64,000 nt of DNA from Eledone cirrhosa (Eukaryota), in assembly GCA_964016885.1 (NCBI GenBank), contig OZ024741.1, positions 161,572,001 through 161,636,000 on the forward strand, written 5' to 3'. Made by a program: the position numbers and the translations under genes. Positions 21,660-64,000 of this stretch are shown piece by piece. Below the pieces are notes generated by a model that saw only the letters and a program-made list of their open reading frames with translations, did no database searches and had not been told where the DNA came from. Each line of letters starts with the position of its first letter. The first letter of the stretch is position 1.

Positions 21660-24600
21660 CATCATCATCATCAACGTTTAACGTCCGTGTTCCACGCTTG
21701 CATGGGTTTGGACGGGGGTAGTCCCACTTGAGGCAAGAGTGATTGTCTTGCTCGCATAGGACTGTCTGGCAGGTTTTCTACAGTTGGATGCCCTTCCTAA
21801 CACCAACCACATTTACAGTGTGGGGCTGGGAGGTTTTTACCGTGTTGCCTACACGGCCACATTACAGCGTGGACTGTGTGTTTTTTTGTCGTGACACCTA
21901 CACGATCTCATTTGTTTCGGCCTGGATGGCGCGGCACCAACATAACTTTACATAGAACGGGGTGGTGTGGATGGGGTGGGGGTGGTGGCGGGACGGGGTG
22001 TAGTTTGTTAGAGATGCCTACTGGCAAGGCGGGTCTTCTCTGTTACTGAGTACCGCCAAAGGTCACGGTCCAGTGACATTGTCTTGGAGAGGTGTAAGTG
22101 TGTGAGGTCGGAGTTTATCAGCTCATCCCATGTTTTTCTAGGTCTGCCTATTCCGTGGCTACCGTCTATCTTTATTGCCCTGCACTTTGTAATACAGCTA
22201 TCGACTTTCATGCGCATCACGTGTCCATACCAACGCAGCCTTCTCTCGAGTAAACAACATCTGATCCCTCTTATCTCTAATTTTTTCCTTAGTTCGTTTA
22301 TGCTTTGCCGTTCACGTATATTACTGTTACACATCCAGCGGAGCATGCAAGCTTCGTTCCTCTCTAGTCTGCGTATATCCTCTGCACACAATGCCCAGGT
22401 CTCACTACCATGCAACATTGCTGTTCGTATGCAGGCATCGTACAACCTGCCTTTCATTTTTAGGGAGAACCCTTTAGCAGCTAATAGTGGTATAAGCTCT
22501 CTGAACTTTTTCCAACCAGTTCTGACTCTAGCTACAGTACTTTCAGAGCACCCTCCCCCACTGCTGATTTTATCGCCCAGGTAACGGAAGCTGTCCACTA
22601 TTTCTATAGAACCCTCTGCGCAATTGAAAGAGCTAGTATTTTGTGGGCACTTGCTGCTACTTATTGCACCAGAACACCGGCCACATGTAAAGTCTATGTT
22701 CTTAGTTAGCTTACCTGTGATCCCACTACATCTTTTATGCACCCATACTTTGCATTTAGGACATAAGATGGAGTTTCTACCTACGCCTTTCCTACATACC
22801 GAGCACGACCATTTCCCAGAAGGGACCGCCGCCTTGTTTTCTTTCCTACAAACTAGAACTTTGGTCTTAGCCAGGTTAATTTTAAGTCCTTTTGACTCTA
22901 GGCCGTGCTTCCATGTTTGGAATTTCTTCTCTAGCTCGGCCATTGATTCCGCTATGAGTGTCAGGTCGTCTGCGTATAGGAGTTCCCATGGGCAGCCTGT
23001 CTTGAACTCCTCTGTTATAGCCTGAAGGGCAATAATAAATAGTAGGGGGCTGAGAACAGAGCCCTGATGGACGCCAACTTTTACGCTAAACTCTTCACTA
23101 TATTCGTTGTTAATTCTAACCTTGCTGACTGTTTCTTTATACATGGCTTGTATAGCCCTCACAAGCCATTCGTCAACGCCTAGTTTTCTAAGAGCCCACC
23201 AGATAATGGAGCGGGGGACTCTGTCGCAGGCTTTCTCCAGGTCGACAAAAGCTAAGTAGAGGGGCTTACCTTTAGCTAGGTACTTCTCCTGTAGTTGTCG
23301 TACTATGAAAAGAGCGTCTGTGGTGCTTTTGCCTGACACAAACCCGAACTGCATTTCATCTAGATCAATTCTCTCTCTGATTAGTTGCGCTATTACTTTT
23401 TCCGTGACCTTCATGACCTGGTCGATTAATTTAATGCCTCTATAGTTACTCCTATCTAGGGCGTCTCCTTTACCCTTATAACAGTTAACGATGATGCTGC
23501 TATGCCAGTCCTTCGGAACAACCCCATTCTGTACGACTTGGTTAACTATGCGGGTGACCATGGTGTGTCCCACCGTGCCAGATGCCTTCAGCATCTCAGC
23601 AACTATTTCCGAAGGCCCAGCCGCCTTACCAGTCTTCATATCCTTGATTGCCTTACTTATTATACTCCCCTCGACTAACACTGCTGGTCCCTCTATCGGG
23701 TCGATATGGGGGAGACTGTCTTTCTCCCATTTATTCTCCTCATTTAGTAGCCTTTCATAGTGACACTTCCAAGCTACCTTCTTATCAGTGTCGGTGATGG
23801 CAAGTATGCCATCATCGTTAAGTACACACTTCTCCCCGACAATATCACGGTTTTCCTTGACGCATTGCCTGGCAATCCTGAACACCTCACGTTTTTGGTC
23901 ATCGCGTTGTAGAACATGCTTGAACTTTCTTTCCTCAGCTTCCCTTCTTGCTAAGTACACTTCTCTCCTAGCTTCCCTCCTGGCCACTTGATAGTCTACT
24001 CTACTTCCCCCATCCCGCCATACTTTCCAAGCCTGCTTTTTGGCCTTAATTGACCCCTCCACCCTATTGTTCCACCACCATGTTACTCTCCTCCTGCCTA
24101 CAGGCCTGCTCCAGCCACAGACTTCGTCTGTCGCCAACAGCAGGTTTGCTTTCAGAAATTTCCACTGTCCCTCTATATTGTCCGATTCTAGATGCTCTTC
24201 CTTACTGTCGAAAGCATCAAGTAATATGCTTTGAAATTTATTTCTGGCTGTGGGGTCCTTTAGTTTCCATATTTTCCTCCTGAGGATAGTCCTCTTCTGC
24301 TGTCGGGTACGTCTCGTCCTGACTGTGAGGTCGCTAATTATCAGTCTATGTTGGGAGGTGCATTCTTCATGGGGGAGGGATTTAGTGTTTACAACAGACA
24401 CTCTGTCACGTCTTCTGGTAAGGATATAATCTACCTGGCTTGTGTGTTCCCCGGATCTATAGGTAATCAGGTGATTGTCACGTTTTTTGAAGTTAGTGTT
24501 ACAGATAGTTAGGTTATTTGCATCACAGTATTCCAGAATTCTGGAGCCTTCCTCATTTCTAGTACCAAACCCATAGCCTCCATGGATTTCGTCGTAGCCG

Positions 24601-25149
24601 TCACAATGTTGTCCAACGTGACCATTTAGGTCGCCTGCAATAATTATATAGTCACTGTCAGATATTTGGGAGGTAGTTAGCAACAGTGTCTCATAGAATC
24701 TGTCTTTTATAGTGCCGGGCAGTCCGGATTGGGGTGCGTACGCAGATATTACTGTCACCGTAGTTCTATTGAGGACAAGTCTTATTTTAATTATTCTGTC
24801 GTTCACTCTATTTACGTCTATTATCTTATCTGCCCACTTTTCTGCTACCATGATTCCTACTCCACCCAGCCCATCGTCGTTTCCCACCCAGAAAAGCTTA
24901 TAACATCGTTTTTTACCCTCAATGAATCTAGCAGACCCACCCCTCCACCTGGTCTCTTGAATACAACAAACATCGACCTCCTTACGTTCAAGCATTTCTA
25001 CAACCTCGTTAGCGCGACCCTTTAGGGTGCCTACATTTATGGTACCAACTCTGAAGTTTTGGGTTGCGTTTGGAGGGTGGGGGTGGTGGGGGGCGGGAGG
25101 AGATAGGATTATGTTAGCCATCCGCGGACGAAACAAAGAGGAGTGCTCG

Positions 25150-25155
<6 letters not shown>
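21658..25155 (-). mobile_element. RTE-A LINE with uninterrupted ORF
   Basis: Complete APE-RT ORF, 3' UTR and (GAT)n tail; 5' end cut at (TA)n just upstream of the ATG. Confidence 0.96.
22008..25121 (-). CDS. RTE APE endonuclease-reverse transcriptase (~1037 aa) with internal PHD-like zinc finger
   Basis: Likely start MANIILSPP at 25121 (the listed N-terminal extension is microsatellite); motifs [34 protein letters not shown]. Confidence 0.9.
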
Positions 25156-25201
<46 letters not shown>

Positions 25202-25305
25202 GTATATATATATATACATATATATATACACACACACGTATATATATATTCTAGCGTGGAAGAATGGACGTAAAACAGTGATGATGATGATATATATATA
25301 TATAT

Positions 25306-32980: not shown

Positions 32981-33449
32981 TTCAAAAAACTCAGAATACA
33001 TTTATTGTATTCAGCCATTTAGAGTGAACATTTTTTTTTTAAATTTGAATATGGCAAAGCCGGCCATTGATCGCTCGTATACAGGAAACTGACTGGCCAG
33101 TCTGCTGATATGCAAATCTGGCTGATCAGTGGATCTGCTAATATGCAGATCTGACATATCAGCCAGTCTGCTAATATGCAAATCAGGCCAATCAGTCACT
33201 GTATATTTTTGAAAATATCATATATTTTCACTAGCTCTCACAGTTGACAGATGAACAGTGAACTATACTGATGAAGGGTAATACCCAGAAACATTAGTGT
33301 CTGCAATTCTGTTTACAAGCCAATACAAGAGCAAAAATGAGGGGCTCATTCTACCGACATGGCTTTCAAAATGAGGCTTGTTTGCATAATTGCAAACAAA
33401 TCGAATATTATTATTAATATTCGAAAAACTCAGATTACATTTATTATAT
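32979..33449 (+). mobile_element. Non-coding hammerhead-bearing retroelement, family H1 copy 1 (retrozyme-like)
   Basis: ~439-bp unit with terminal redundancy tattc(a/g)aaaaactcaga...catttatt; homologous to 49259-49777. Confidence 0.7.
33252..33316 (+). ncRNA. Type I hammerhead ribozyme (family H1)
   Basis: CTGATGA 33268-33274, stem II gggt/accc, GAAAC a ttag t GTC, stem I with distal gaacag/ctgttt. Confidence 0.7.
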
Positions 33450-43690: not shown

Positions 43691-43717
43691 ATAGCAAAAA
43701 TAAGTAACTGTATTTAC

Positions 43718-43866
43718 CATTCCAATAATGATAAAACCTAACTGAATGACATCTGTATAAACAATAGCCAACATCTGGCCACAGACAGAATATATAATAG
43801 TTACGAGAGCCGACACCACAATTGCTATGTTTGTATCAATGCCAGTCATTATTCCCAGGCTAGTAC
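43718..43866 (-). CDS. SLC5A7: SLC5A7-like coding exon 4
   Basis: tttcag|...|gtaaat, 149 nt, phase 1-0; GTSLGIMTG...YSVCGQMLAIVYTDVIQL contains the SSS-family YTD motif. Confidence 0.92.
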
Positions 43867-44107
43867 CTGAAAAGAAAAAAAAAACACAATAAGCCAGAGT
43901 CAAATAATCTATATTATAATAAATGTATAACATATGTTTGTCTGTCTATTACAGATATATTATGATCTGTCAAAAAAGTTCTAAGATTTCTATTAAAAAT
44001 TCAGGAAATACAGTTGAAAGTAAGACAAAATTTGAAGGAATATTCAAAATGTTCTAAAATGCTTTCATTGATGACAAAAGTCAGTGCTCTCTCTCTCTTG
44101 CACTCAA

Positions 44108-49164: not shown

Positions 49165-49777
49165 ATTGCAAACAAGTCTCAATTTTATAGCAATGTCAGT
49201 AGAATGAACCCTTTATTCTTGCTCTTGTGTTGGCATGTGAATAGTTCTGCTTATAAGTAAGGGTTCATTCTACTGACATGGCTATAAAATTGAGGCTTGT
49301 TTGCATAATTGCAACGAAATGAATGTTATTAATATTCGAAAAACTCAGATTACATTTATTGTATTCAGCCATGTATTGGCAAAGCCAGCCATTTATCGCT
49401 CGTATACAGGAAACTGACTGGCCAGTCTGCTGATATGCAAATCTGGCTGATCAGTGGATCTGCTAATATGCAGATCAGCCAGTCTGCTAGTATGCAAATC
49501 AGGCCGATCAGTCACTGTGTATTTTTGAAAATAGCATATATTTTCACTAGCTCTGACAGTTTGGCAAGTGAACAGTGAGCTGTACTGATAAAGGGTGATA
49601 CCCAGAAACATTAGTGTCTGCAGTTCTGTTCACATGCCAAAACAAGAACAAGAATGAAAGGTTCATTCTACTGACATGGCTATAAAATTGAGGCTTGTTT
49701 GCATAATTGCAAACGAATCGAATGTTATTATTAATATTCGAAAAACTCAGATTACATTTATTATATTCAGCCATGTA
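49165..49777 (+). mobile_element. Family H1 copy 2: inverted 5' piece plus ~1.3 tandem units
   Basis: ~115-bp direct repeat 49259-49374 / 49659-49777; 49165-49250 is the reverse complement of ~49620-49712. Confidence 0.75.
49561..49640 (+). ncRNA. Type I hammerhead with extended stem I (core variant CTGATAA)
   Basis: ttggca a gtgaacag tg agctgta CTGATAA a gggt gat accc a GAAAC a ttag t GTC tgcagtt ctgttcac a tgccaa. Confidence 0.7.
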
Positions 49778-49789
49778 GAGTGAAAATTT

Positions 49790-49827
<38 letters not shown>

Positions 49828-49934: not shown

Positions 49935-50167
49935 TAAACAAACCAAGCATTATAATAAATGTTCGGTAAACCGATACGTGCATATATATATGTGTGCATA
50001 TATGTATATATATACATACTACTGTACGTCTGTATACATATATGTATGTACGTATACATACATACTTACATCTAAGTAAGTGCCGTACTAAGAGTGAGAA
50101 ATGAAATTTCGTTTCATTCTATTCCATTTATATATATATATATACACACACATATATATATACATAT

Positions 50168-50455: not shown

Positions 50456-50540
50456 CATATTGTCTATATGCTTCAGCTTGTACCCATGGGGGGAGGGGGT
50501 CGGTACTCTGTGTGTGTGTGTATATATATATATATATGTA

Positions 50541-50904
50541 AAAGTTCTATTTAAATTGTTGGGATACAACAAGCAAATATTTTTATAACTGATATAAAGC
50601 ACTCAACAAATATTTGGAGTAAAAATACGATATTAACAAATGGAAACTATATTTATAAAACCATATTTATTTCATTATACATATTTCAAGGACACCAAGT
50701 TAAATTATGGTGTGCTTTCATCAGATAAAATATAACATAGATCAGTTTTATAAATAAATATTGACATACCCTTAAAGAATGCAACCATTACTGTTGGAAG
50801 CTCCAATTATCTGATGAAAGCACACCATAATTTAACTTGGTGTCCTTGAAATATATATAATGAAATAAATATGGTTTTATAAATAGTTTCCATTTGATAA
50901 TATC

Positions 50905-53691: not shown

Positions 53692-54367
53692 AATAGCTCT
53701 GCTTATTGAGTTATTTTAACTCTTTCAGTCATCGATCAAAACTTGTTAAAGCAGACACCACACACACATATACATATGAATATGTGTGTGTATTTCATTA
53801 TTATATATAATAAGGTGGTGCTATTAAGTTAGACATGGCCTGGACCAATACTGGCTGAAACCTATCAAAGTTATTAAAGTTGTTATTATTGCTGGAGAAT
53901 GAACACGCGATAGGGACGCAATGTCTGCTACTACAGTAGTAATTTACTGCTACACTTCACACCGTTTAAGGCACAGAACGAAAACATGTTGATAACGTGA
54001 GTCCCTGTTTCGCTCTACAATTACCAAAAACTTGCATATTGCGCAAGTTGGATTGTTGATTTTGGATTCATATAAACCAATCGAGGATATTATATAATAT
54101 CCTACGATATGATCCAGGTTTGTTATTTAACCTGATTGTTTTTTCGTTGTTGTGGTGGCTTCTGTGGCTTTGTCCCCTTAACCACAGTTTTCAATTTGTC
54201 ATACTATCTAACATATGTTTATGACTCTAAGATGTAACCTATCGATTTAGCGATATATTCTTATTGAGTGCTTTGTGCAAATCCAAATTTTGTTCTATCG
54301 CGGATGTTGGCCGACCGCCACAGCTTCGATTTTACTAAACTTCCAATCGTGTATATATATATTTATA

Positions 54368-55067
54368 TCGACTGACAGGAAGGTATACGGTGCTGATGAC
54401 AGTTAATAAGCTAGAAACTAGTTCATCGTTCCTTTGTCAGTGTTGAACAAAAGGGCAATGATGGTTGCCAAACACTGTACGGCTTAATTCGGGCTGTTTG
54501 TTTACAAACAAACCTAACATTATAATAAATGTTCAGTAAACCCATACGTACATATATATGTGTGTGCATGTATGTATGTATATACATACTACTGTACGTC
54601 TGTGTACATATATGTATGAACGTATACATACTTATATTTAAGTATCAGCCGTACTTAGAGTGAGAAATGAAATTTCATTTTTCCCATTTATCGTTTCCGG
54701 TATGCCTAGCAGACTAACTCACTCGATATGCACATTAGGCTGCTCAGCCGTTAATATGCATAAGGAAAGTATATACTTTCAAACGTTCAATCGACTGACA
54801 GGAAGGTATACGGTGCTGAACAAAAGGGCAACGATGGTTGCCGAACACTGTACAACTTAATTCGTGCTGTTTGTTTACAAACAAACCGAACATTATAATA
54901 AATGTTCGGTAAACCCATACTTACATATATATATATGTGTGTGCATGTATGTATGTATATACATACTACTGTACGTCTGTATACATATATGTATGTACGT
55001 ATACATACTTATATTTAAGTATCAGCCGTACTAAGGGTGAGAATTGAAATTTCATTTTTTCCATTTA
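54368..55067 (+). mobile_element. Family H2 hammerhead-bearing partial tandem (~423-bp unit); fragment also at 49936-50130
   Basis: Unit restarts at 54791 (tcgactgacaggaagg); TA-flanked; no credible ORF. Confidence 0.75.
54371..54441 (+). ncRNA. Type I hammerhead with extended stem I (family H2)
   Basis: actgacag..agg..acggtg CTGATGA c agtt aata agct a GAAA c ta g TT catcgt t cct ttgtcagt. Confidence 0.75.
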
Positions 55068-55081
55068 TATATATATATATT

Positions 55082-55113
<32 letters not shown>

Positions 55114-55399
55114 GTAATAATAATAAAATTAAAGACTAAAATCCAAAGAGGGCTCGATAAGGAAAATATATATCAAATATATAAGAACCGCAGAGCAAAT
55201 ATTTATTAAAATAACAGATTAAAGTTTGAGCAAAGAATCGCTGCTTTCACCCTTAACGGGATCTGCTTAAACTTTAATCTGTTATTTTAATAAATATATA
55301 TTTATATATATATGGAAAGTTATATTTAAATTGTTGGGTTACAACTAGTAAATATTTATAACTGATATAAAAGCACTCGACAAATATTTGGAGTATATT

Positions 55400-55767
55400 T
55401 ACAATATTAAATAAATGGAAACTATATTTATAAAACCATATTTATTTCATTATATATATTTCAGGGATATCATATTAACAATATGCTATGCCTTCCTCAG
55501 ACAAAATACAATATAAACAGTTTTATAGATAAATAGATTCGACATACCGTAACATCTACTTGCATTTGAGAAGGTTGATTTACTACCAAATCAACCTTCT
55601 CAAATGCAAGTAGATGTTACGGTATGTCGAATCTATTTATCTATAAAACTGTTTATATTGTATTTTGTCTGAGGAAGGCATAGCATATTGTTAATATGAT
55701 ATCCCTGAAATATATATAATGAAATAAATATGGTTTTATAAATATAGTTTCCATTTATTTAATATTG

Positions 55768-55769
<2 letters not shown>
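55400..55769. repeat. Palindrome with 182-bp arms and 6-nt loop (family H3)
   Basis: 55400-55581 / 55588-55769 read as exact reverse complements by eye; CTGAGGA 55669-55675 ... GAAA 55707. Confidence 0.93.
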
Positions 55770-55822
<53 letters not shown>

Positions 55823-61471: not shown

Positions 61472-64000
61472 TGTGGGTATGGTGTGGCGTGCGGCGGCCG
61501 GAAGCTGGGGAGTGCTTGACCGGAAGGGTGCTTGGCCGGAAGCGTGCTCGACCGGAAGGGCCAGCAGATCGGCTTCTCTCTAGTGGTGACCAGGAATGGT
61601 GTGGACGCGAGTTTTGGCAGCTCCCGGTGTTAATGAGTTGGACGCATGTGGAGGAGGAGAAACCAGCAATGGGATTTAGCGGCGCCTATGAAAAGCGGTA
61701 AGTGAGATAGCTTTTTCTAACCACAAGCTATTTCGGCACTGGAAACTGAGATCTGATTGAAAAATAAAAAAAAAAAAAAAAGACTTTCTCGAAAACAAAG
61801 CTAGTGGAAAAACAGAGAGGAGTCTGTTGTTTTTTTTTTTTATCACGTACCGCAAGACAAATTAGGATATGGCGACGAACGAGTGAAGTGATTAGGGCAT
61901 TTACCGGCTGGTCGCAAGCTTACAGAAGATAGATGTGGCTGGCCTCATGGCACTGTACCTCGAGGGGGACGCGTTGGTACTCTTCCTTGAGTTGGATGAA
62001 CACAGCTAAAGAGATGCGCAAAAGATTGAGAGGCGCATGATGGAAGCGTTCGCAGAGGGACCGTTAGCCGCTTTTGCTAAGCTGGCAAGAATTAGATGGA
62101 ACGGTGAACGCGTGGACATTTTCACAGCGGAAATACGGCGATTGGCCATGTTGGCTGGATATCAGGTGGAATGCGAACGCACGGTGCGGTTGGCGTTCAT
62201 AAATGGATTTCCAGACGACATAGCGGTGAAACTGCAGCAAGTCCCGGGTTACAAAGAAATGGAAATGCGTTCACTAGTGGAACAAGCCTGGATCATAGCA
62301 GAAAATGCCAAGAAGAGTGTCGCGGCGATAGCAACTACAGAGGCTCAAGACAGCGAAATGGTGAAAGGGAGACAACCACAGCACGCGGTCGCCCGCGAAC
62401 GTTTAGAGGTCGCTGTTTTAGGTGCCAGGACCCGCACATGGCTAGAGACTGTAGAGAGTCAAGGCCGGAAATAATATGCTACCGGTGTAAGCGACCAGGC
62501 CACATCGCTACTAACTGCGACTGGGGAAATGATCCAAGGGGAACTACTGCGCCGGTAGTTGCCCCTTACGAGTAGAGGCGCTGCCCGTGGTGGAAGTCTT
62601 CGTGAGGGGAAAGCCACAGCGAGCCCTCGTGGATACGGGCTGTACGATGACACTGGTGACCGCGGGGGTGGAGCAGAGGTGGAGAAGGAAGAGCAGCGTA
62701 AGGGCACTCGACGGAAGGAAAATTGAATGCCGTGGTCGCAGCGAGGTGGAGATAGCGGTACGGGGAAGGAAAATAAGGCTTTCTGCCATTGTAGTTGATA
62801 ACGTGGTGGATGGGATCGGCGTGGTTATGGGCATGGACGCAATTGGCTGTCTAGGAGGCGTCACAGTGAACAACGTCGGTGTGTCGTTTGGCGGCGCTGC
62901 ATCGGTATGCGCTGTGAGAACGCGACAGGAGAACCAGAAGGCCCACGAGGAGAAATACCCCGCTTACACTGTGCAGGACAAAGACTTCAAGGCCGTGTTC
63001 GATGGGCAGCGATGGGTTGTTGAGTGGTACTGGAAGGGAGAACCACCAACACTGAAGACCAAAGTGGGCTGCTATCAACACACATTGAAGGGAAACATTA
63101 GGAGCGAGTTCGAGCGAGAGGTAGAGAGATGGATTGAGGAGAGCATACTGCTTCCCTGGAAAGAGGAGGTGAAGTGTGGAGTATTGCCGTTAATGGCGGT
63201 GGCGCAACCCACGGAGAACAAGGTGAGGCCGGTGCTGGACTTTCGGGAGCTGAACGAGCACGTGTCATGCCACACGGGTGGCGAGGTCACGGATATCTGT
63301 GGGGAAACCCTGCGTGAGTGGAGACGCATGGCGGGTTCAGTAATCGTAGATCTAAAGTCGGCATACTTGCAATTGCATATAGATGAGAAGCTCTGGCAGT
63401 ATCAGCTGGTCAGGTATAAGGGCCGGACATATTGTCTGACCAGGCTCAGTTTCGGGCAGAGCTCCGCACCGAAGATCATGGCGGCGGTCCTCAAGACCAT
63501 TCTGGGAAAGGCCGACAAGATGAAGAGGGCCACTAACTCCTACATTGACGACATCCTAGTGGACTAGTCTGTGGTGTCGGTTGTCACGAGCCATTTATAC
63601 ATTGACATCCTAGTGGATGAGTCTGTGGTGTCGGCGGTCACGAGCCATTTACAGGGGTATGGACTGGCTGCGAAGCCGTCAGAAGCGTTCGAGGGAGGCT
63701 CCGCGCTGGGACTTAGGCTACGGCAAGACAGGACAGGCGTCTTGGTATTCCAGAGGGGAAATGAAGTTCCAGAACTGGGCCCAAGTATGAGTAGGCGGGA
63801 GCTTTTCTCGGTGTGTGGAAAGTTGGTGGGTCACTACCCGATTGCTGGGTGGCTCTGGACGGCATGCAGCTATGTCAAGAGACGAGCGGGAGGGGTGACT
63901 TGGAGTGACAGAGTGGACGGTGGCCATGATGCAGGAGATCGTGGGGAGGGTGAAGGCCAACGACCCAGTGCGGGGACGCTGATATGTTCCCAAATCGCAG
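61472..64000 (+). mobile_element. Gypsy/Ty3 LTR retrotransposon, degenerate, continues past the window
   Basis: TG start; gag with CFRCQDPHMARDC and CYRCKRPGHIATNC; protease ALVDTG; RT motifs RPVLDFRELN, DLKSAYLQL, YIDD; GC-rich; stops and a ~57-bp duplication at 63541-63651. Confidence 0.92.
62587..63567 (+). pseudogene. Gypsy pol (protease and RT), truncated by a stop after YIDDILVD
   Basis: ORF track translation; the RT frame is broken by the duplication. Confidence 0.85.

Follow-up and report, generated by a model that had tools for sequence, protein, structure and literature searches.

Metazoan non-LTR retrozymes, as the available portions of the reports on them describe them (PMC7229834; 10.64898/2026.07.22.740005), are non-coding, low-GC tandems of units a few hundred bp long, each with one type I hammerhead and a predicted self-paired circle, and the element analysed here, which we call H2, shares these features. 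Penelope-like mobilisation has been proposed for them in the accessible text of PMC7229834, which also describes axolotl HHR_Amex2, a hammerhead in which U.U stands mismatched at the base of helix II and cleavage is better in the dimer, and which provides a precedent for the mismatch that H2 carries at the same place. In the accessible part of 10.64898/2026.07.22.740005, an "active" retrozyme is one with two or more consecutive units bearing a complete hammerhead, and Li et al. report cleavage in vitro for 1 of 9 predicted frog retrozymes. Set against these retrozymes, as far as the same portions go, H2 differs in that its 423 nt lie at the upper end of the size range, that it is known here from sequence alone, that most of its copies are short insertions scattered through the genome, with inverted arms and with ends fixed in the manner of Penelope elements, and that no pseudo-LTR parent was found among 70 GIY-YIG loci. 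Among the papers listed for hammerheads in octopus or cephalopods, none concerns a retrozyme family of this kind, judging from titles and the opening lines of abstracts. An octopus repeat annotation of 2026 (PMC13282606) does not mention hammerhead, ribozyme or retrozyme in its main text; its supplements may list such motifs.

The second group of relevance is that of the Penelope-like elements with a C-terminal GIY-YIG domain, for which partial tandems, inverted copies and tails have been described (10.1101/2021.04.23.441226, in part). According to the accessible sections of PMC11167929, a Penelope-like protein from a lizard cleaves AT-rich DNA and extends each of the two strands, with synthesis beginning at a pair of internal sites that define the genomic "tail", and the hammerhead is dispensable for insertion in that system. 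H2 resembles these elements, to the extent that the available parts of PMC11167929, PMC4209133 and 10.1101/2021.04.23.441226 describe them, in its partial tandems, 5' truncation, inverted 5' copy and optional tail, in its AT-rich or (TA)n targets, and in a hammerhead with a palindromic helix III. It differs from them, on the same partial basis, in having no ORF, in a tail of ~51 nt rather than 30-40, and in a hammerhead that is canonical (6-bp helix I, 4-bp helix II) and not of the minimal form, with the G10.1-C11.1 pair absent.

The locus lies in a 64,000-nt stretch of Eledone cirrhosa contig OZ024741.1, referred to below as the window. We are confident that it is a 5'-truncated insertion, ~3% diverged, of a non-coding 423-nt repeat that is very abundant and has a type I hammerhead motif, likely written into (TA)n by a Penelope-like reverse transcriptase/endonuclease acting in trans, and that unit 2 lost its catalytic core through a rare, microhomology-bounded deletion that is likely plain decay. 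Its parts, and those of a separate insertion of the same family nearby, are as follows.

54352..54368, no strand: TA-rich 5' flank (sequence).
54367..54789, plus strand: unit 1, a 423-bp monomer at the 5'-truncated start of the insertion (sequence and BLAST).
54443..54448, plus strand: TTGAAC, the 3' arm of the basal extension of helix I (pair counts and folding).
54454..54469, plus strand: conserved 6-bp hairpin, not a hammerhead; its counterpart in unit 2 is at 54827-54842.
54634..54641, plus strand: family end site A (unit position ~274), through which the window copy reads.
54785..54790, plus strand: GTTCAA, the 5' arm of the basal helix, ahead of unit 2 (pair counts and folding).
54790..55068, plus strand: unit 2, partial, lacking the 50 nt that hold the catalytic core and stopping at end site B (~position 325).
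54813..54819, plus strand: deletion junction with 7-nt microhomology (sequence and BLAST).
55066..55113, no strand: (TA)n 3' flank, the likely target (sequence).
49936..50130, plus strand: separate 5'-truncated insertion of the H2 family, unit positions ~140-325, ending at site B into (TA)n and without a hammerhead.

The 423-bp partial tandem proposed by the first-pass annotation is borne out, both the sequence and BLAST giving a period of 423 bp with a partial second unit. Unit 2 matches unit 1 at 30/30 nt before its gap and at 237/256 nt after it (BLAST). Measured against the subfamily majority, unit 1 carries 8 substitutions over ~250 nt and unit 2 carries 7, with none in common, so that both were copied from an unmutated template and then aged separately. 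The copy is one-armed, with its 3' end at site B, and its flanks are TA tracts; a TA-rich word of 15-17 nt recurs on the 3' side and is too simple to be called a target-site duplication. GC in the surrounding 2-kb bin is 0.29, and no ORF of at least 110 aa overlaps the element. A long AT-rich inverted repeat at 55197-55297 adjoins it, and similar sequence flanks several other loci of the family in the same (TA)n tracts, which suggests, on sequence similarity, shared insertion hot spots.

Several other elements share the window. The fragment at 49936-50130 is real, its first part (49936-50114) matching the H2 unit at 158/179 nt and the match continuing to ~50130; between it and hammerhead family H1 lies another, unrelated repeat, which has matches at 12 further places in the window, and the closeness of fragment and H1 is no evidence for a composite element. 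H1 itself is present on the plus strand at 49540-49800 and 33224-33449 and has an A.A mismatch at the base of helix II; the copy at 49585 has a G8-to-A change, and copies in loci L202 and L205 have an intact core. Hammerhead family H3, the third, has a long helix II and occurs at 55412-55775 and 50521-50900, inserted as two opposed arms beside (TA)n, one such pair lying just downstream of the H2 element. The minus strand also holds a 1080-aa LINE frame with endonuclease, reverse transcriptase and PHD finger (22008-25250) and a sodium:solute symporter exon (43706-43891), with another exon ~46 kb before the window; upstream exons of the symporter gene were not found in the 194 kb searched for intronic placement. 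Zinc-knuckle, protease and reverse-transcriptase frames of an LTR retrotransposon lie at 62108-63564 on the plus strand.

The hammerhead of unit 1 is intact, and its anatomy is as previously described, with an exact core, GAAA, helices and triplet where they had been placed; the C.A mismatch at the base of helix II and the absence of an Rfam hammerhead match are additions to that description. All features in the following list are on the plus strand.

54371..54441: type I hammerhead motif with extended helix I (descriptor scan and pair counts).
54371-54377 with 54435-54441: distal helix (sequence).
54387-54392 with 54424-54429: helix I, 6 bp.
54393-54399: core CTGATGA, exact.
54401-54412: helix II, 4 bp with one G.U.
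54400/54413: C.A mismatch at the base of helix II (sequence).
54414-54417: GAAA (sequence).
54416-54423: palindrome, helix III of 1-2 bp (sequence).
GUU triplet, with the predicted cut after 54423 and the 3' product from 54424 (sequence).

Unit 1 thus contains CUGANGA, GAAA, an NUH triplet and helices I and II, the elements by which we assigned membership. Across the 263 units from all loci, the position of the G10.1-C11.1 pair is occupied by a mismatch in 255, with U.U in 179 and C.A in 76, and a sister family has A.A there. A search of Rfam with the motif returned no hammerhead family, neither at gathering score nor among 50 matches at E <= 5, the matches at that threshold being microsatellite-driven miRNA matches only. 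In folding models, the lowest-energy fold of the monomer motif (-20.2 kcal/mol) lies below the catalytic fold (-11.1 kcal/mol), placing the catalytic form ~9 kcal/mol higher, in line with the dimeric action proposed for such motifs (PMC4209133, accessible part). The weak helix III and the mismatch at the base of helix II together predict slow cutting. In the modelled circle, 67-71% of positions are paired, with z-scores of -6.5 and -9.9 relative to sets of 25 shuffles, and a part of this self-pairing stems from an internal TA/TG tract.

The window copy is one of a great many. Genome-wide, over the 3.0-Gb assembly, a pattern spanning the junction of helix I and core has 34,803 matches (at most 1 mismatch), against 0 for a reversed control, which places the hammerhead junction far beyond chance. 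We sampled the family with a 24-mer that lies upstream of the ribozyme and has 5,579 exact matches; the first 100 of these, every one on contig C1, gave 90 loci, 87 after removal of 3 overlapping ones, and 100 units; this sample is independent of the ribozyme and biased to subfamilies with that 24-mer and to copies spanning the cut site. Conservation of the core in other copies had been set beforehand as a test of the motif, and the core is exact in 80 of these 100 units, which were chosen by an anchor outside it. Subfamilies are distinguished by the cleavage triplet, GUA in 167 and GUU in 94 of the 263 units, by one pair in helix I, which is G.U in 111, U.G in 75 and A-U in 56, and by the mismatch at the base of helix II. 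The copies are dispersed and one to seven units long, with low GC, no ORF and tandem units inside the 150-450 bp range of metazoan non-LTR retrozymes. Tandem arrays of up to 7 units were found, and 3-7 consecutive units with complete hammerheads exist, for example in L213 and L215, so that the family as a whole contains "active" loci as defined above. L213 (G000:C1:9968245-9972400) consists of two arms with 2 + 7 units, among which there are 0-2 differences over 175 nt as well as variants common to the whole locus, a near-identity which indicates recent activity of the family.

A sister family ~70% identical to H2 came to light when 40 of 1,996 candidates were scored, which yielded 41 matches; of 25 copies, 18 retain the core. 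Its members (L293-L317, e.g. G000:C1:359263579-359263819) are older, mostly single copies with a different helix III palindrome. When the fold is scored in 14 copies of the family and 10 of its sister, pairing is seen in 96.6% of 648 cells, compared with 26-45% for slid controls, and 7 of 27 pairs are altered on both sides, including compensatory changes in helices I and II; helix III also remains palindromic with changed letters in the sister family (8/10). This comparison of copies shows the hammerhead fold to be under selection and kept by compensatory change, the double-sided changes representing a few subfamily splits and not independent events. An A-to-I editing scar was considered and set aside, A>G changes in unit positions 4-170 standing at 10.3 versus 8.1 per 1000 with no clear excess. 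One sequencing run, whose status as RNA is a guess, contained 0 contigs matching the window copy or a young copy, which speaks neither for nor against expression, and a run from another organism contained 5-6 contigs of the family, a small share.

Downstream of the ribozyme, each unit carries a second hairpin that the first-pass annotation read as a decayed hammerhead. The hairpin exists in both units, and the reading of it as a hammerhead fails: CUGANGA occurs at this site in 0 of 100 sampled units, the GAAA-equivalent varies (GAAC, AGAC, AAAC, GAGC; GGCA in the sister family), and the neighbouring TTGAAC forms one side of a helix. Its invariance follows from pairing with an equally invariant GTTCAA just upstream of the ribozyme, which extends helix I; TTGAAC has no partner before unit 1 because the insertion is truncated there. 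This GTTCAA/TTGAAC helix is paired in 142 of 144 cells across 24 copies and has a modelled pair probability of 0.99-1.0 in a young monomer folded from cut to cut, and since it shows no covariation, the pairing rests on complementarity and folding. The hairpin, a conserved structure, is paired in 82/84 cells in H2 and in 58/60 in the sister family, where both partners have changed in three of its pairs. A role for the second domain as a switch, through GUGUU pairing downstream, was rejected, because this pairing is conserved but has a modelled probability of 0 in the cut-to-cut monomer.

The loss of the core from unit 2 is confirmed as a gap of exactly 50 nt, bounded by gtgctga (54390-54396) and gtgttga (54440-54446). 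The pattern of the deleted junction has 5 matches genome-wide, of which 2 are true junctions and 3 are intact ribozymes with point changes; the second true junction, at G000:C3:46550155 on contig C3, belongs to a different subfamily, and in both known cases (n = 2) it is the unit at the 3' end that bears the deletion. Across the same ~200 nt, deletions of at least 10 nt affect 9 of the 91 units sampled, one of them removing the whole ribozyme by another junction and one clipping the core. Two deletion junctions against 34,803 intact ones mark the loss as sporadic decay, and the missing core of unit 2 is likely a rare and ordinary event that did not spread and has no family-level meaning; the 50 nt may have been lost either when the reverse transcriptase slipped or through repair of the DNA afterwards. 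One could instead suppose that the unit once held two hammerheads, the second now decayed, and that recombination between the two produced the deletion, which would then have its own role, as the 6-of-7 microhomology, the hairpin at a plausible distance and the recurrence of the junction at two loci would allow. We regard this as highly improbable, however, since the second site has neither CUGANGA nor GAAA in H2 or its sister, TTGAAC is accounted for as a helix arm, matches as good as that microhomology occur 13 times within the unit at distances of 30-80 nt, and the junction is so rare. With one complete hammerhead and a second unit without core, the window locus falls short of two consecutive complete units; judged by sequence features, H2 is a family with the testable hallmarks of metazoan non-LTR retrozymes and the window locus is an inactive copy of it. 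Going by the two-ribozyme definition of Li et al., a locus with a single remaining core would not release a monomer and would be a dead end.

How the family spreads can be read from the ends of its insertions, which we examined at 84 of the 87 loci (3 were dropped as duplicates or for lying at a locus edge). The 3' ends fall at unit positions 262-290 (site A) in 40 and at 305-332 (site B) in 33, with 11 elsewhere, so that 73 of the 84 insertions end at two fixed sites ~51 nt apart; the 5' ends are scattered, and (TA)4 lies within 45 nt in 59. An inverted arm is present in 44 of the 84, and of the 31 two-armed loci in which both ends could be classified, 29 have arms that end at opposite sites (p = 5e-7, in a test run with two fixed ends already in mind). 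H2 insertions therefore carry a Penelope-type footprint of two 3' ends, an inverted 5' copy and a microsatellite target. It is scarcely likely that H2 is instead a DNA satellite with a relic ribozyme, spread by unequal crossing-over or DNA-level duplication: the locus L214 does show a local two-unit duplication after insertion, but copies that are dispersed, that share fixed 3' ends yet vary at the 5' end, and that have inverted arms and unlike flanks argue against such an origin, as does an RNA structure kept by compensatory change. We had considered the A-B-A-B array of L214 (L214:2337-4273) as evidence for a dimeric circle and rejected it, because the repeat stops part-way through the array and the fifth unit belongs to neither type, which points to a later local duplication (~842 bp) after insertion or to an assembly effect. 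L007 shows a weaker period of two units.

Potential donors of the enzyme are present in the same genome, which has several families encoding reverse transcriptase with a C-terminal GIY-YIG (loci L273-L292; also L193-L212). In one of them, a young autonomous Penelope-like family whose open frames are about 900 aa long and which forms back-to-back pairs, the 3' ends into (TA)n are of two kinds that differ by ~41 nt, the short one in 12 of 20 copies and the long one in 8; another carries its own small hammerhead ~380 nt after the ORF. A motif shared between the ends of H1, H2, H3 and the autonomous elements was sought and not found above shuffles (z <= 1.6). Might the H2 unit be the pseudo-LTR of an autonomous Penelope-like element, and its copies the truncated ends of that element? 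The end footprint is the same as that of autonomous elements, and frog retrozymes are homologous to pseudo-LTRs (10.64898/2026.07.22.740005, accessible part). Nonetheless we consider this unlikely. Longer copies continue upstream into further monomers and not into an ORF in the loci examined, no ORF of the size given above overlaps the element, and the hammerheads beside reverse-transcriptase ORFs are different sequences. Among 50 + 20 GIY-YIG loci, no autonomous element is homologous to H2 in its own terminal region, the H2 copies near such loci being separate insertions; the search for a partner covered 150 of 10,596 GIY-YIG candidates, a fraction that leaves the pseudo-LTR reading some room.

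The question of the template is more finely balanced. None of 30 rows anchored 11 nt downstream of the predicted cut site starts at that site, which means that a unit-length cut RNA copied once is not the template, and since copies run through the cut site, the template is likely a circle or an uncut multimer. We somewhat favour the circle. Multi-unit loci would be transcribed and cut at their hammerheads, probably as dimeric ribozymes, a mode of action proposed because helix III is a palindrome of 1-2 bp. The long helix I, including its GTTCAA/TTGAAC base, is predicted to hold both ends of the cut monomer and would favour ligation to a circle. Copying would start at the two fixed internal sites, one on each side of the (TA)n break, a mechanism we propose for a footprint that is itself observed, and would pass through the cut site without stopping. 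Taken as a whole, we put forward tentatively, as plausible and not as established, that the insertions of this ~35,000-unit retrozyme family record a step so far only proposed for animal retrozymes, namely Penelope-like priming at two fixed internal sites, one on either side of a (TA)n break, followed by copying around a closed RNA circle whose ends an unusually long helix I had splinted, the invariant basal helix and the hairpin next to it, both kept across ~30% divergence, being signals for ligation and protein recognition.

The same element and enzyme could, however, work from a linear template, either an uncut multi-unit transcript or cut monomers joined by template jumps, with the hammerhead serving processing or regulation and no circle copied. 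We think this possible, if less probable than not, and it has evidence behind it. In the accessible sections of PMC11167929, hammerhead mutants leave insertion by the Penelope-like protein in vitro unchanged and unprocessed RNA is the main substrate; the slow cutting predicted for H2 from its weak helix III and mismatched helix II points the same way, as do main blocks of at most two units in 73 of 84 loci. Against it stand the young arrays of up to 7 units such as L213, whose near-identical units and locus-wide variants would be easier to derive from a circle, and the accumulation of related retrozymes as circles in coral, mussel and axolotl (PMC7229834, available portion).

Regardless of which template is copied, the deletion that drew attention to this locus matters little in itself, and the family matters more. 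It adds natural hammerhead motifs with U.U, C.A and A.A at the 10.1-11.1 position. Penelope mobilisation of animal retrozymes has been proposed from co-occurrence and pseudo-LTR homology; the H2 insertions themselves carry the two-start-site, two-arm footprint, for which the autonomous Penelope-like element in the same genome is a control. With a published in vitro Penelope system at hand, a young 422-nt unit offers a substrate for tests of trans-mobilisation and of a circular versus a linear template.
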